A stretch of DNA of 64,000 bases from an uncultured Finegoldia sp. (GTDB taxonomy: Bacteria > Bacillota > Clostridia > Tissierellales > Peptoniphilaceae): positions 39,544 through 103,543 of the forward strand of contig NZ_CAMXVC010000001.1 of the NCBI RefSeq assembly GCF_947252345.1. The letters are read 5' to 3'. Every line of letters starts with the position of its first letter. Position 1 is the first letter of the stretch. A program made the translations under genes and the position numbers. The notes under the pieces were generated by a model. That model was given only the letters and a program-made list of their open reading frames with translations. It had not been told where the DNA came from and searched no databases. Shown in pieces: positions 1,868-50,136 of this stretch.

Positions 1868-3223
1868 ATGAAAAAATTTATTTCGTTGGCACTTGCGCTA
1901 ACTCTTAGCTTGTCGACTGTATCGTTGGCAGATAACGAGAAGGCAGTCAAGCCATCGGCGAAAGCTGAATCGGTGACAAGCGTCGACAAAAATTCTGACA
2001 AAAAAGTTCAGACAGATAATCACAATAAAAATGATAAAAACGGTAAAAACGATAATTCAAAATCGAGCGATAAAAATGACAAGAAGGACAAAAATCCGAA
2101 CATCGCTACGAATGAAGATGGTATCTTCAAAAATGTAATTCATCAGAGATTTCAAGGTGACAACAGAGCAAAAACAGCTGTTAATGTTCAACGCCACTAT
2201 TTTGCAAACACTGACAAGGTTGTATTGGTCAACGACAACGCCTATCCCGATGCAATCAGTGCGACTAATATGTCGATGGGAAAATATCCACTATTGTACA
2301 CGGGAAAGGGAAAGCTTCCGATAGAAACCAAGTCTGCGCTCGACAAGATGTTCTTGGATGAGATATATTTGCTGGGCGGAGTAAATTCCATCAGCAAAAA
2401 AGTTGAGAACTATCTCAAAAAAGAATTTCCAACTGCAAAAATCACACGAATCCAAGGCAAAAACCGCTACGAAACTTCTTCTGCGTCAGCTAAGTATCGT
2501 GCTCAAGCGAAAAATTTGATATTTGCCGCTGGAACCAACTACGCAGACGCATTATACGCTACAAGCCTCGCAGCTTATCAAAAGGCTCCGATTTTGCTCG
2601 TGAGCAATGACGGCGTTGATAACTCGACTTTGAATTACATCAAATCAATCAAAAACATCGAAAACGTCACGATTGTCGGCGGAAATATTTCCGTGAATGA
2701 AAAAATAAAATCCACGATAGAATCCGCCACGAGAAGACAAGCTGTGAGATTGTCCGGAGTCGACAGATATGAATCGAGCGTTGAGGTGGCGAAAAGAGTC
2801 AACGCTAATCCAGCAGAAGTCATCACGACAAGTGGCGAGGTTTTTGCAGATGCTCTTGTGTCCTCAACAGTTGCGCAAAAAATCCAAGCTCCGATTTTGC
2901 TAGTGAAGAAAGATGTCATTCCAGAAAAAGTGAAGTTGTATTTGAAACACACAAATTCAATCTACAAATTGACTACAATCGGTGGGTTTAACACCGTAAC
3001 CAAGAACAACTACTCGACTCAGGTGATTTTAATATCGGGTCTTGACATCGACAAGCCCTTGGTAGACAGAAATGGAAAGGGAATCATCAAGGCTTTCACG
3101 AAAGATTACAAAAAATACTACATTCTTCCAAACAACAAATACTACAATTCGATAAAACAATACGACAAATTATTTGTGTATTTGCGTGACGCATTGGCAG
3201 AAGACTACAGACCGGTAGAATAA
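1868..3223 (+). CDS. secreted cell-wall-binding protein with three CWB2-type repeats
   Basis: RBS AAGGAGAG, then ATG at 1868. Signal peptide MKKFISLALALTLSLSTVSLA. Repeated NRYETS/DRYESS ... ADALSA ... PILLV modules are typical of cell wall binding repeat 2 (Cwp-like). Confidence 0.65.
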   Translation: MKKFISLALALTLSLSTVSLADNEKAVKPSAKAESVTSVDKNSDKKVQTDNHNKNDKNGKNDNSKSSDKNDKKDKNPNIATNEDGIFKNVIHQRFQGDNRAKTAVNVQRHYFANTDKVVLVNDNAYPDAISATNMSMGKYPLLYTGKGKLPIETKSALDKMFLDEIYLLGGVNSISKKVENYLKKEFPTAKITRIQGKNRYETSSASAKYRAQAKNLIFAAGTNYADALYATSLAAYQKAPILLVSNDGVDNSTLNYIKSIKNIENVTIVGGNISVNEKIKSTIESATRRQAVRLSGVDRYESSVEVAKRVNANPAEVITTSGEVFADALVSSTVAQKIQAPILLVKKDVIPEKVKLYLKHTNSIYKLTTIGGFNTVTKNNYSTQVILISGLDIDKPLVDRNGKGIIKAFTKDYKKYYILPNNKYYNSIKQYDKLFVYLRDALAEDYRPVE

Positions 3224-9529: not shown

Positions 9530-12217
9530 TTAATTTTTGCTTTTGATGGATTTGAATATTTCTCCAGCCACAAATGGCAAAAATGCGCATGGCAAGATTA
9601 CTTTGTAGTGTTCGATGTGGAGTGGTATTGTTTCAAATACTTTGTTCACTCCAGGGATGTAGATTACTGCCAACATCATTGCCAACGACAATGACGTTCC
9701 CATCACCAATGCTTTGTTGGAGAATACTCCGATTTGAAATACAGATTTGTTGTCGCTTCTCACCGAGTAGCTTCTCAATAATTCGGACAAAATCAAAGTC
9801 GCAAATGCTACTGTTCGTGCAGATTCGATGTGTCCGTCGAAGTGATTTAGTCCGTAGTGATAAGCGAACAACGTCGCAATCGTAATCGCTATTGATTGCA
9901 CTGCGATGCTAATTCTCATATTCTTGTCGATGATAGGTTCCTTCGGTGAACGAGGATTTCTGTTCATAATGTCGGTTTCTCCCTTTTCAACTCCGAGTGC
10001 CATCGCTGGGAATGAATCTGTCACCAAATTTAGCCACAACAATTGGATTGGGATAAATGGAGTGTCCCATTTGAACATTATCGCCAAGAACACGATTAGA
10101 ATTTCTGCGATGTTGCAGCTCAACAAGAATGATACGAATTTTTTGATATTGGAATAAATTATTCTTCCTTCTTCAACTGCGTGGACAATTGTCGCAAAGT
10201 TGTCGTCCGTCAAGATAACTTCCGAAGTGTTCTTCGCAACGTCAGTTCCTGTGATTCCCATCGCAATTCCAATGTCCGCTTTTTTGATTGCAGGTGCGTC
10301 GTTTACTCCATCTCCTGTCATAGCTGCGATGTGTCCATTTTCCTTCAACGCTTTTACGATTTGAACTTTGTTTTGTGGCGAAACTCTCGCATAGACTCTC
10401 TTGACTTTGACGATTTCACGGATTTCATCGTCTGTCATATCGTTGAGTTCACTTCCCATAATCGCCTGTGAATCGTCCGTACAAATTCCCAAATCCTTTG
10501 CGATTGCAACTGCTGTTTCCAAATAATCCCCCGTTATCATAATCGGCGTTATTCCCGCAGTCTTGCATTCTTTGATGGCATCTTTAACTTCCAATCTCGG
10601 TGGGTCAATCATTCCCGAAAGCCCTACGAATACCATATTTTTTTCTACTGTGTCAGAATTTATCTCGCTTGGCAAATCGTCGTGTTCACGAAAAGCATAC
10701 GCAAGTACCCTCAGCGCTTGTTTTGCGTATTCGCTGTTTTTGTCCAATAATTTTTGTTTTAATTGTTCAGTAAACGGTTTGATTTCGCCGTCGATTAAAA
10801 TGTGGCTACATTTTTCGATTATTATATCCGGTGCGCCTTTTGTGAACGAAACGAGCTTATGATTCGAGAATTTGTCGTGGAATGTTGTCATCATTTTTCT
10901 TTCTGAATCGAAAGGAATTTCTTCCACTCTCGGATATTTTTCATTCGACATTTCTTTTGTTATGCCTTGTTTTCCAGCGGCTGTGTGAAGTGCCCCTTCC
11001 GTAGGGTCCCCAATGATTTTATACAATCCGTCGTCTTCGATTAATTTTGAATCATTTGTAAGGCTCATAATGTTGAGCAAAGTCTTAAGTGATTTCACGT
11101 CATCGTCTTGGATTTTTTTGTCGTCAATCAAATACTCGCCTTCTGGTTTGTATCCAGTTCCCGTGACGTCAATGTCTTTTCCGTCGATGTGTATTTTCTT
11201 CACCGTCATTTCGTTTTGTGTCAACGTTCCAGTCTTGTCCGAGCAAATCACTGTTGTTGTTCCCAGCGTTTCAACTGCCAACAATTTCTTGACGATGGCG
11301 TTTTTGTCTGCCATTCTTCCCATTCCAAGGCTCAAAACAATTGTGACAATTGCTGGAAGTCCTTCCGGAATCGCCGCAACTGCGAGTGATACAGCCGTCA
11401 TCAACATATTCAACGCGTCAAAATCATACAAGAAATATCCGACAGCAAACACGATTGCACACACGACTATTGTGATTATTCCGAGTTGCTTGGACAACTG
11501 TGCGAGCTTTCTTTGAAGAGGAGTTTGTTCGTCTTCGACCTCCGACAAGCTAGTCGCGATTTTCCCGATTTCTGTGTTTTGACCGATTTCTACAACTACG
11601 CCCTTCGCCCTACCGTAGCTGACGATGGAGGAGCTGTACGCCATATTTGTCCTGTCACCGATTGACACATCTGAAGTTATCTCGTCGTTTGCGTTTTTCT
11701 CAACGGAAACAGATTCTCCCGTCAGCGATGATTCGTCGATTTTTAAATTTGTAGATTCTATCAGTCTCAAATCAGCTGGAATAATATCCCCCGTTTCCAA
11801 CTCGACGACATCTCCCGGTAACAAATCTTTGGAATCGATGTGTTGCACCTGTCCGTCTCTGATTACCTTCGCTTTTGGGCTCGCCATTTTCTGCAACGCC
11901 TCGATAGCCTGTTCTGCCTTTCCCTCTTGATAAATAGAAAGCAGTGCATTCACGATGACAATCGCTATGATAATCAAACTATCTGTGATTTCTCCAATTG
12001 CAATCGACAAGATAGATGCGAAAAGCAAAATAATTATCATCGGGTCCAAAAACTGCTCTTTTAATTTGGTTGCCATCGACTTCTTCTTTTTTTCTTTCAG
12101 AGAATTTTTCCCGTATTTTTCCATCAAAGATGCAATCTTGTCATTCGATAGACCTTTTTCAATGTCTGTGTCGAGATTTTCCAGTACATCTTCTCTGTTT
12201 GTTTTATACCAATCCAA
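9530..12217 (-). CDS. P2-type cation-transporting P-type ATPase (Ca2+/Mn2+ efflux type)
   Basis: DKTGTLT phosphorylation motif. TGDGVNDAPAIKKADIGIAMG hinge. 10 TM helices. TTG start at 12217 with AGGAGGG RBS. Confidence 0.85.
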   Translation of the reverse strand: MDWYKTNREDVLENLDTDIEKGLSNDKIASLMEKYGKNSLKEKKKKSMATKLKEQFLDPMIIILLFASILSIAIGEITDSLIIIAIVIVNALLSIYQEGKAEQAIEALQKMASPKAKVIRDGQVQHIDSKDLLPGDVVELETGDIIPADLRLIESTNLKIDESSLTGESVSVEKNANDEITSDVSIGDRTNMAYSSSIVSYGRAKGVVVEIGQNTEIGKIATSLSEVEDEQTPLQRKLAQLSKQLGIITIVVCAIVFAVGYFLYDFDALNMLMTAVSLAVAAIPEGLPAIVTIVLSLGMGRMADKNAIVKKLLAVETLGTTTVICSDKTGTLTQNEMTVKKIHIDGKDIDVTGTGYKPEGEYLIDDKKIQDDDVKSLKTLLNIMSLTNDSKLIEDDGLYKIIGDPTEGALHTAAGKQGITKEMSNEKYPRVEEIPFDSERKMMTTFHDKFSNHKLVSFTKGAPDIIIEKCSHILIDGEIKPFTEQLKQKLLDKNSEYAKQALRVLAYAFREHDDLPSEINSDTVEKNMVFVGLSGMIDPPRLEVKDAIKECKTAGITPIMITGDYLETAVAIAKDLGICTDDSQAIMGSELNDMTDDEIREIVKVKRVYARVSPQNKVQIVKALKENGHIAAMTGDGVNDAPAIKKADIGIAMGITGTDVAKNTSEVILTDDNFATIVHAVEEGRIIYSNIKKFVSFLLSCNIAEILIVFLAIMFKWDTPFIPIQLLWLNLVTDSFPAMALGVEKGETDIMNRNPRSPKEPIIDKNMRISIAVQSIAITIATLFAYHYGLNHFDGHIESARTVAFATLILSELLRSYSVRSDNKSVFQIGVFSNKALVMGTSLSLAMMLAVIYIPGVNKVFETIPLHIEHYKVILPCAFLPFVAGEIFKSIKSKN

Positions 12218-12234
12218 TTTTTCCCTCCTGTTTT

Positions 12235-12348
12235 ATAATAAAAAAGACCTTCACCATAAATGGCAAAAGTCTTGCTAACCAAAGTGGTTTTGTGCCGGGT
12301 TAATACCGTAATGACGACACAATATTTTTAAGCTACTCCCTTTTGTAT
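12235..12348 (-). ncRNA. yybP-ykoY (Mn2+-sensing) riboswitch with terminator expression platform in the ATPase leader
   Basis: Minus-strand leader reads CAAAAGGGAGUAGC...GGUUAGCAAGACUUUUGCC, matching the conserved GGGGAGUAG and UUAGCAAGACC cores. P1 is CAAAAG/CUUUUG. Its 3' strand overlaps a hairpin AAGACUUUUGCCA-UUUA-UGGUGAAGGUCUU plus U6 immediately before the RBS. Confidence 0.55.
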
Positions 12349-12384
12349 AATATATATTCTATCAAAAGCATTTTTGAAATGCAA

Positions 12385-13143
12385 TTATTTTATTATTATC
12401 TGAAAAGTATCGTGTTCTTTTTTCATATTCACAATTTTCGTGTCCTCGTAATCGTGAGTGTCGATGAACTCGTCCACAATCGCCGGATTTTGCGTGAAGT
12501 GCATCGGAAACAAAACTTTCGGATGGCACTTTTCTACAAACTCGTTTACGCCCAAATCGTAGTTTTTTTTCAAACGAGGGTCAACTGGGAAAAATCCGAT
12601 ATCCAAATTGCCGAGCTTGTCGATTTCCTTCGAAAATCTGTCCTGCATACTTTTTCTGTCTTCCTCGGTGTCTTCCTCCCACGCCCAATTGTTGAGGTCA
12701 CCTGCGAAGAAAAACTTCAAGTGATTTGTTTCAAAATACACGCTGATTCCCATATCAGTTGAACCATAAGCTGTAAAATCAACTCCATAGACCGAAACGG
12801 ACTCTCCGACTTCGAGCTTGACTACATTCTTGTCGAAATGCTTCTTCAACAATTCGATGTTGTCCTCACCGAGAAACACGACATTGCCCTTAGTGTCATA
12901 ATCGAAAACATCTTCGTAAACATCTTCACTGACAATGTATGTAACATCACTCGCATTTTCATAATCAAAAATACTTTCGTTGTAGTGGTCGGCATGAGAA
13001 TGCGTCACAACGAATATAACCTTTTTGTCGTTCACATTTTTTGGCAACGTCCCTTGGAAATAATCGAAAATAATAATCTTGTCCTCAAACTCCAACGAAA
13101 ACGAGCTGTGATATATATATCTAATGTTCAAACTATCCTGCAT
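12385..13143 (-). CDS. MBL-fold metallo-hydrolase
   Basis: THSHADH motif (HxHxDH). Confidence 0.65.
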   Translation of the reverse strand: MQDSLNIRYIYHSSFSLEFEDKIIIFDYFQGTLPKNVNDKKVIFVVTHSHADHYNESIFDYENASDVTYIVSEDVYEDVFDYDTKGNVVFLGEDNIELLKKHFDKNVVKLEVGESVSVYGVDFTAYGSTDMGISVYFETNHLKFFFAGDLNNWAWEEDTEEDRKSMQDRFSKEIDKLGNLDIGFFPVDPRLKKNYDLGVNEFVEKCHPKVLFPMHFTQNPAIVDEFIDTHDYEDTKIVNMKKEHDTFQIIIK

Positions 13144-48846: not shown

Positions 48847-50136
48847 TTAAGATTTAAATATTGTAGGTTTGTCGACCTTAGTTTCTAAAGCTTTAATTGC
48901 ACGTTCTACTAATTCTTCTCTCAATCCATCTTCACGAGATTGTAATTCAGGATTACCAACTGGATATGGAATTGCGACTGTAGGTATAATTCTGTTTGCT
49001 CCTACTGATTGTGAAATTGTAGTTATAGTAGCCATATGAACTATAGGGATACCATATCTTTCGATTTCTTTTACCATCGTTGCACCGCAACGTGTACAAG
49101 TACCTCAGGTACTAGTCATTATAACGCCGTCAACGTGGGCATCCTTCAATTCTTTTCCGATTTCCTTACCAAATCTCTTGGCGTTTGCTACAGATGTTCC
49201 AGTTCCTGTTGTAGTGTAGAAATATTTGAACACATTTCCGATAACGCCTTCTTTTTTAAGTCTTGTAAGTTGGTCTAATGGAGCAACTCTGTCTGCCTTT
49301 GCGTTACAGTATACAGGGTCAAATCCTCCGTGGATTGTGACAAATTTGCCCTTCAATTCGTCCAAATCACTGACATCGTATTTCGCCCATTTTTGTGCTG
49401 ATGCCGATTGAACTTTGTCAGGGTTTCCTTCAGGAACAACACCACCAGTTGTGATAAGTGCGATTGTAGCTTTGCTCATATCAGCGATTGGTGCTGCTGG
49501 TTCAACTTCGTCAAATTCTGGCATTGGAAGTTCTGTTTCAAATTCTTCGTTGTTGAATCTCTTGAGAAGCATTTCAACTGCACGTCTAGCTCCGATTTTG
49601 TCAGAAAATTCTGTCAAACGTCTTCCTTGTGCAAGATATCCGTCTTCTTTTGGAGAAAGCTTTTTGCCTTCGATTATTTTATTAGTCAATGCTGCCATTT
49701 CTTTGATGGCTTGTTTCATTTTTGCTGCTGAATCAGCTGTCAAGATGATGTAGCTGTTAAGTCTACACATATCAACTGCTGGGTTTTCGTTGTACATTCC
49801 TGTTACCATTGGAACGTCTTTGTCTTTTAATAGATTGATAACTCCCGAACAAGCCATACCGTATCTACCAGCGTTGAATGCAGGTCCTGCTACGACTATG
49901 TCTGGTTTTACTTTTTCAAATACATCTAGTATGAATTTGTCTGATACTTCTTTGTGTTCGTTGTAGTAGTTGTCACCACAGACGATTGTTCCTACAACTT
50001 GTCCGTCTACCAAAGCCTTGTCGAAGGCTTGTGCACAACCTACAGGTTTTTCTTCAAAATGAGGTTCATAATCAGCTTTGTCTTCTCCACCTATTTGTCC
50101 AAAAAACTGATTTACATAGTATAATATTCTCTTCAT
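48847..50136 (-). CDS. grdB: glycine/sarcosine/betaine reductase protein B selenoprotein subunit (GrdB-like); in-frame UGA (Sec) at 49105-49107
   Basis: The track shows 49105..50136 ending ...IMTST-TGA, then 48847..49077 in the same frame. Read-through gives TST-U-GTCTRCGATMVKEIERYGIP..., 429 aa in total, GrdB-sized. Confidence 0.7.
49078..49092 (-). promoter_or_regulatory. candidate bacterial SECIS hairpin 12 nt 3' of the UGA
   Basis: mRNA reads UGA GGUACUUGUACA CGUUGC-GGU-GCAACG: a perfect 6-bp stem with a GGU loop. Confidence 0.45.

Follow-up and report, generated by a model that had tools for sequence, protein, structure and literature searches.

The window, by which we mean the whole 64-kb stretch of DNA that was analysed, carries on its minus strand a gene for a P2A-type cation ATPase, with a leader directly upstream in which we recognise a candidate riboswitch and an intrinsic terminator (Table 1). 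The pump shares 87% amino acid identity with that of F. magna, and the organism is close to Finegoldia. The 131 nt immediately 5' of the TTG start codon at 12217 on the minus strand (AUACAAAAGGGAGUAGCUUAAAAAUAUUGUGUCGUCAUUACGGUAUUAACCCGGCACAAAACCACUUUGGUUAGCAAGACUUUUGCCAUUUAUGGUGAAGGUCUUUUUUAUUAUAAAACAGGAGGGAAAAA) include two core sequences, GGAGUAGC and AGCAAGAC, placed just inside a CAAAAG/CUUUUG helix. In the form GGAGTAGC-N40-70-AGCAAGAC this pair of cores occurs once in the 64 kb, and none of 100 shuffles contains a match. The original prediction had placed both yybP-ykoY cores in the minus-strand leader of the 895-aa ATPase, and both are found there; of the second core as it was then drawn, however, the "GGUU" part is the 3' strand of P4 and not conserved core.

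Table 1. Features of the pump gene and its leader. Positions are those of the window.
Feature	Position	Strand	Basis or detail
895-aa P2A-type (SERCA/PMR1/LMCA1-like) cation ATPase gene	9530..12217	-	TIGR01116 719 bits (above cutoff), TIGR01522 735 bits
Predicted sigma-A promoter	12356..12384	-	-35 TTGCAT 12384..12379, 17-nt spacer, extended -10 TGATAGAAT 12364..12356; read from sequence
Putative aptamer, three-way-junction yybP-ykoY/Mn2+ type	12263..12346	-	covariance model R1, 98.3 bits; covariation on 42 relatives
P1.1 5' strand CAAAAG, switch helix	12340..12345	-	pairs with CUUUUG 12269..12264
L1 5' strand GGAGUA (12339..12334) and P1.2 5' strand GCU (12333..12331)	12331..12339	-	GGAGUAGC invariant in alignment A1
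L2 linker UAAAAAUA, in place of helix P2	12323..12330	-	unfolded, 8-nt A/U
P3 arm	12290..12322	-	P3.1 = 12322..12315 with 12297..12290, 8 bp
L3 UCAUUAC	12314..12308	-	7 nt, within P3 arm
P3.2 GG/CC, loop UAUUAA	within 12290..12322	-	part of P3 arm
P4 hairpin AACCA-CUU-UGGUU	12277..12289	-	hairpin predicted at P4 position in 36/37 relatives
P1.2 3' strand AGC, L1 3' strand AAGA (12273..12270), P1.1 3' strand CUUUUG	12264..12276	-	sequence
Intrinsic terminator	12238..12273	-	13-bp stem 12273..12244, U6 12245..12240; terminator scan
RBS AGGAGGG (12229..12223) and TTG start codon (12217..12215)	12215..12229	-	5 nt between RBS and TTG

The predicted promoter lies 5' of P1.1 and 3' of the stop codon that ends the upstream gene (ORF 12385..13143), and its position implies a transcription start near 12349, just 5' of P1.1. 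A consensus promoter scan gave a weaker, different -35/-10 pair. The Finegoldia orthologues keep the promoter arrangement, as TTGATT-17-TGGTAAAAT, and they also keep the start TTG GAT TGG TAC.

Within the leader, the canonical L1 is present, with its 5' side GGGAGUAG at 12340..12333, its 3' side (A)AGA at 12273..12270, and P1.1 closing it. The hairpin made up of P3.1, an asymmetric 7-nt L3 with the conserved adenosine, and P3.2 is present as well. The canonical four-way junction, with both P2 and P4, is absent: P4 is there, and in place of P2 there is an unfolded 8-nt linker, a departure from the four-way form that the original prediction overlooked. The missing P2 does not disqualify the element, because the validated alx aptamer, which lacks P2, and the validated mgtA aptamer, which lacks P4, are three-way junctions too.

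Our search with the pump protein retrieved 29 genome loci. The same leader layout is found in Finegoldia (seven loci), Miniphocaeibacter (two), a Tissierellia MAG, Parvimonas and Paratissierella, ahead of pumps that are 58-87% identical in amino acid sequence to that of the window. On the 5' side this layout comprises GGGAGUAGC, a short A/U linker, a helix, UCAnUAC, a small hairpin and the return strand; on the 3' side it comprises a short hairpin, AGCAAGAC, and a P1 3' strand that doubles as the 5' arm of a terminator. The element is in each of these orthologues directly upstream of the pump gene and on the same strand. Among the loci retrieved, it is absent from more distant pump relatives (Sedimentibacter, spirochaetes and others), and a diverged version is found in Peptoniphilus faecalis and Acetobacterium bakii. 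The leader of A. bakii (L024, about 2780-2900; pump 46% identical) has GAGGGAGUAA, a P2-like hairpin, an mntP-type L3 (CAACAUACA) and GUGAGAC; it seemingly lacks P4 and may be another architectural variant. Two Peptoniphilus pump orthologues, 63-65% identical, have leaders without the Mn motif (L010, about 2860-3000; L014, about 660-796), in which a long imperfect palindrome, TTACTTAAAATAAGAT ... ATCTTAAATTAAGGTAA, is followed by a terminator-like hairpin. A T-box leader (RF00230, 100.1 bits; L012, 1299-1461, plus strand) also lies some 1.5 kb before the P. faecalis pump gene. Our literature search found no paper linking Finegoldia with a yybP-ykoY riboswitch.

We widened the comparison with a pattern scan of metagenome sequences, which required both cores and a UCANUAC L3 and left P2 optional, and which returned at least 120 loci. 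Because the pattern itself required the cores and L3, their conservation in this set is circular, and only the helices are informative. Among the matches listed, GGAGUARC and L3 are separated by either 14-17 nt (28 sequences) or 21-38 nt (all others), a bimodal spread; the shorter distance leaves no room for P2. Sequences of the short class precede P-type ATPase genes and also TerC-family genes, some of them in GC-rich organisms, again among the matches listed. In 36 of the 37 P2-less relatives the segment between GUAGC and P3.1, which is 4-13 nt long, has no predicted fold. This L2 segment varies between genera (UAUAAAA, AAGUAAA and UAAUUU, for example). The A-rich L2 might in principle pair with the U-tract and so provide one more regulatory contact, an idea that we gave up because the L2 sequence is not conserved from one genus to another.

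To describe the shared structure we used a covariance model, R1, that was built from 15 Tissierellia leaders only, with a hand-assigned three-way-junction structure. A search of the window with R1 found the element and no second copy, the next best match scoring 14 bits (E 0.26). The R1 alignment holds 42 sequences from 58 sources; it is fitted to the model, and many of its sequences are close relatives. It took the place, together with per-sequence parsing, of a MAFFT alignment of the aptamers that misaligned P4 and the third P1.2 pair. Across the 42 sequences, 90.3% of pair cells hold standard pairs, as against 27-51% when the partners are slid by 1-3 columns; compensatory changes, affecting both sides, occur in 17 of the 23 pairs; and none of 500 shuffles reaches any of the observed measures. 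The CAAAAG/CUUUUG helix (12345..12340 with 12269..12264), which had been predicted as P1 and which we call P1.1, is supported by this alignment, being 94.6% paired with compensatory changes in five of its six pairs. P3.1 is 93-98% paired, and five of its pairs have compensatory changes. At the third position of P1.2, 32 of 36 sequences have a U-A pair, and single switches to A-U and to G-C occur. P4 is length-variable and aligns poorly, with 64% of its cells paired in the model alignment. Judged by pairing and covariation, the P1.1 and P3.1 helices are strongly supported.

A significant match to the Rfam family RF00080 had been proposed as the check on this element, and the lack of one as its refutation. 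None was found, either in a gathering-threshold scan of the whole window or in searches at E<=10 of 301 nt around the element and of the bare 96-nt element. Our controls invalidate the match as a criterion with the Rfam copy used: the validated E. coli mntP aptamer reaches 41.6 bits, where the gathering score is 45 (E. coli K-12, L150:462-558), and the validated E. coli alx aptamer (L151:575-700) is not reported at E<=10. RF00080 likewise gave no match in 11 loci with orthologous leaders or in 17 metagenome loci with the motif, some of which have P2, and it missed two candidate leaders with all four helices; in all, 28 of the 28 other candidate loci scanned were missed, those with four helices among them. 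According to its printed consensus, the model in the Rfam 15 copy that we used has 177 positions, an mntP-type L3, an obligatory P2, and lacks the 3' L1/P1.1 strand. Given these controls and this consensus, the lack of an RF00080 match with this Rfam copy is uninformative for elements of the present type. Weak Rfam matches to PyrR, GibS and narK were dismissed as driven by the terminator or low in score. Elsewhere in the window, at 49067-49104 on the minus strand, there is a full-length match to SECIS_4 (RF01990; 64.8 bits, E 3e-13), and a selenoprotein gene is therefore implied in the window.

An alternative is that the resemblance is due to chance, or that the leader is a decayed relic that no longer senses anything, with the hairpin serving as the terminator of the upstream gene. 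Such a reading could appeal to the lack of an RF00080 match and to the folding energy of the leader alone, which is ordinary (z = -1.2); because the minimum free energy (MFE) structure of the leader is the OFF state, folding of the leader alone cannot by itself show an aptamer. Against this reading stand the single occurrence of the core pair and its absence from the shuffles, conservation across genera with compensatory changes, and the conserved promoter, which separates the stop codon of the upstream gene from P1.1. We regard this explanation as extremely improbable.

The best foreign match of R1 is the E. coli alx aptamer, which scores 17.6 bits (E 0.024, filters off), or 22.5 bits over the full aptamer (E 0.008 in a 527-kb search); the match is moderately significant, the E-values of R1 are rough, and no proteobacterial sequence went into building the model. 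A weak match to the E. coli mntP aptamer (11.1 bits) is also in the correct position. The alx aptamer has no P2; its junction is three-way, and L2 forms a capping loop (PMC12153347, PMC13594968). In its structure (PDB 9JGM) a short single-stranded L2 replaces P2, as it does in the window element. The L3 of alx is UCAUUAC, a sequence present in only 3% of Rfam members (PMC13594968), and the L3 of the window element is the identical 7-mer; in the sequence comparison, A12312 aligns with A37 of alx, which coordinates Mn2+. The two features of the alx-type subclass that the window element shares are thus the replacement of P2 by L2 and the UCAUUAC L3. By contrast, the cAUUg capping triloop, its closing C-G pair and a protonation partner of the A114 type are all absent from the window element, whose L2 is UAAAAAUA, and alx differs further in having a long P4 with a terminator inside it. 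The alx switch is translational and coupled to pH, and it lies ahead of a gene for a TerC-family exporter in a proteobacterium, whereas the window element, in an anaerobic Firmicute, has a terminator as its platform and precedes a P-type ATPase gene. Among Rfam members, the alx L3 has been described as restricted to Bacillales, and its combination with a three-way junction as found in organisms that grow at alkaline pH (PMC13594968). The Tissierellia clade does not fit this picture, probably because Rfam does not detect the clade.

Tissierellia are amino-acid fermenters that release ammonia, which offers a speculative link to a dual input like that of alx, in which Mn2+ sensing would depend on pH and the pump would be induced mainly when the cytoplasm becomes alkaline. 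The window element does have both features that are tied to alkaline activation, the three-way junction and the UCAUUAC L3 (PMC13594968). Moreover, in a set of 94 unique aptamers (the window, L001-L018 and L030-L149), UCAUUAC is the L3 of 17 of the 37 without P2 and of five of the 57 with P2, among the matches listed; this count ignores relatedness and is inflated by closely related sequences, eight of the 17 P2-less carriers being of the Finegoldia type. Nonetheless, the window element lacks the L2 features that have been proposed to give alx its pH response, namely the C19.A114+ wobble and the cAUUg triloop with its closing pair C19-G23, and the L2 sequence is not kept from one genus to the next. 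The L3 of sister genera is UCAAUAC or UCAGUAC rather than UCAUUAC, and the expression platform is a terminator and not a translational switch. Overall, coupling to pH seems to us quite improbable.

A second close parallel is the mgtA riboswitch of S. pneumoniae (PMC6649816), which comes from a Gram-positive host and shares with the window element a three-way junction, the L1 cores, a CGUCAnUACGG P3/L3 segment, an overlap between terminator and P1.1, and control of a PII-type Ca2+/Mn2+ ATPase. Mn2+ has been shown to activate read-through of the S. pneumoniae mgtA RNA (PMC6649816). The two junctions differ in which helix they lack: mgtA has P2 but no P4, and the window element has P4 but no P2. 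In streptococcal mgtA-type elements an invariant UNAAA takes the place of P4; the window element has the P4 hairpin there.

The same streptococcal RNA may explain a further Rfam match, to RF02617 (SSRC10, "Streptococcus sRNA 10"), at 12239-12351 on the minus strand of the window (21.2 bits, E 0.064). Taken at face value, this match would suggest that the leader is an independent small RNA instead of a cis-acting element, and the expected terminated transcript, of about 105-110 nt, would indeed resemble an sRNA in RNA-seq. The score, however, is far below the gathering score of 56, and the element always lies directly upstream of the pump gene on the same strand. Furthermore, the SSRC10 consensus reads GGGAGUAGC, P2, CGUCAAUACGG, UGAAA, GCGAGAC and a terminator; with its Mn-riboswitch cores, its UGAAA and its terminator it corresponds to the mgtA riboswitch (PMC6649816), and SSRC10 appears to be the streptococcal mgtA Mn2+ riboswitch without P4, catalogued as an sRNA. 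An independent sRNA at this position is therefore highly unlikely.

ATPase-linked leaders occur in all three architectures in our sample: P2-less in Tissierellia, with pumps 58-87% identical to the window pump; P4-less with UGAAA, with pumps 39-45% identical; and full four-way junctions, with pumps 44-48% identical. We take the L1 and L3 of the window element to be near-identical to those of L. lactis yoaB (4Y1I sequence). The C. difficile CD2503 leader and L. lactis yoaB, whose crystal structure is the archetype of the canonical four-way form, likewise precede genes for cation P-type ATPases in Firmicutes (PMC11477304). Both are four-way junctions with P2, unlike the window element, and the terminator-type ON switch is common to all three. 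P-type ATPases under Mn2+ riboswitch control thus include S. pneumoniae MgtA, L. lactis YoaB and C. difficile CD2503 (PMC6649816, PMC11477304).

Turning to the expression platform, the terminator scan found one site against 0.3 expected, and this is the sole terminator-like site in the 600-nt neighbourhood. The stem, AAGACUUUUGCCA-UUUA-UGGUGAAGGUCUU (12273..12244, loop UUUA), contains in its 5' arm the whole P1.1 3' strand and the L1 3' AAGA, and P1.1 and the terminator are therefore mutually exclusive. This agrees with the earlier description of the P1 3' strand as the 5' arm of a hairpin of 13 bp, followed by U6 and placed ahead of the AGGAGGG RBS. The terminator is part of the MFE structure when the leader is folded. 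A hairpin that covers the P1.1 3' strand is formed in 18 of the 18 leaders folded, as the MFE structure downstream of L1; in most of them it begins within the conserved L1 3' AAGAC. A U run lies 3' of the hairpin, and the distal stem sequences differ. For the window leader we calculated -28.0 kcal/mol for the OFF (terminator) state and -15.7 kcal/mol for the ON (aptamer) state. The default would therefore be OFF, and read-through would need docking stabilised by the ligand, as has been described for the switches of L. lactis and S. pneumoniae.

The leader thus combines a platform that competes for the P1.1 3' strand with a position ahead of a metal-efflux-type (P2A ATPase) gene. From its sequence, and because conservation, covariation, likeness to the validated alx aptamer and the conserved terminator overlap all support membership, with literature precedent in agreement, we consider it very probable that the leader is a functional transcriptional ON switch of the yybP-ykoY (Mn2+) family, built as a three-way junction without P2. 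The original prediction of an Mn2+-type ON switch ahead of a P2-type ATPase is supported by the same evidence. We infer that Mn2+ is the ligand and that metal binding promotes read-through. Transcription would begin just 5' of P1.1. Without metal, the P1.1 3' strand and the L1 3' AAGA would pair with downstream sequence as the 13-bp terminator, and most transcripts would stop before the pump gene. As cytoplasmic Mn2+ rises, an ion would presumably be held between L1 and L3, the two helical legs would dock and P1.1 would be stabilised; the terminator 5' arm would then be sequestered, RNA polymerase would read into the P2A-type ATPase gene, and the pump would clear the surplus cation from the cytoplasm. 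Each part of this proposal has precedent: an Mn2+ riboswitch ahead of a P-type ATPase gene, an ON switch that acts through a terminator, and three-way junctions that lack P2 or P4. The combination of an alx-type L3, a P2-less junction, a terminator and a P-type pump, in host-associated anaerobic Firmicutes, is mildly new.

The nearest solved relatives of the pump are the Listeria Ca2+ exporter LMCA1 (718 bits), the human Ca2+/Mn2+ pump SPCA1 (602 bits) and SERCA (about 570 bits). In the alignment, the window pump retains all the SERCA-type residues of ion sites I and II: E285 (PEGL), N702 and E705 (M5), N730, T733 and D734 (M6), and E812 (M8). This assignment follows what we take to be the SERCA numbering. 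In LMCA1 and SPCA1, site-I residues are replaced. Going by these residues, the window pump may carry two ions per cycle; its specificity cannot be read from them. Pumps of the P2A type carry ions out of the cytoplasm. The suggestion in the original prediction that this pump exports Mn2+ rather than importing Ca2+ therefore set up a false contrast, as export is from the cytoplasm with either ion. Among pumps of this kind, L. lactis YoaB protects against Mn2+ (PMC11477304), and Mn stress induces S. pneumoniae MgtA, which works as an Mn2+/Ca2+ pump (PMC6649816). By analogy with these precedents, we infer that the window pump exports Mn2+, possibly together with Ca2+.

The same fold could instead respond to Ca2+, or to Ca2+ and Mn2+ together, in which case the leader would be the feedback sensor of a Ca2+ exporter and not a switch for Mn2+ detoxification. 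The closeness of the pump to LMCA1 and its complete set of residues for both Ca2+ sites are in line with this, and in vitro the mgtA aptamer of S. pneumoniae has a higher affinity for Ca2+ than for Mn2+ (PMC6649816). However, read-through of the S. pneumoniae RNA in vitro is activated far more by Mn2+ than by Ca2+ (PMC6649816), and S. pneumoniae MgtA protein increases under Mn stress and not under Ca stress. In addition, the window element has kept the residues of L1 and L3 from which the Mn2+ site is built, including the L3 adenosine that provides an N7 ligand. A Ca2+ effector is, in our judgement, distinctly unlikely, and we retain Mn2+ as the preferred ligand. We also considered whether the Tissierellia leaders could form a distinct sub-class, defined by an alx-type metal loop, a P2-less junction, a terminator and a pump with two SERCA-type sites in host-associated anaerobes that are not alkaliphilic; this idea is tentative, and we think it rather unlikely to hold.

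Should the metal or pH response in Tissierellia prove different from that of canonical Mn2+ riboswitches, for instance tuned to Ca2+ or gated by pH, this would break the proposed link of the alx L3 and three-way junction to Bacillales or alkaline habitats. In that case, loss of P2 or of P4 would also emerge as a recurrent route by which the yybP-ykoY aptamer is retuned. A natural P2-less aptamer that has the alx L3 and lacks the alx capping loop would in any case be a useful comparison for asking which element confers coupling to pH.

For the family as a whole, our results indicate that a clade of Mn2+-type riboswitches, in Finegoldia, Parvimonas, Miniphocaeibacter, Paratissierella and many metagenome relatives, goes undetected by the RF00080 model of Rfam 15, and that the family is undercounted in riboswitch censuses that use this model. 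Statements based on Rfam membership, such as the limitation of the alx-type L3 to Bacillales, may reflect this blind spot. Gram-positive anaerobic cocci are opportunistic pathogens that face both metal restriction and metal intoxication in the host. Our analysis suggests that these organisms defend themselves against manganese, and possibly calcium, with a P2A pump under riboswitch control.
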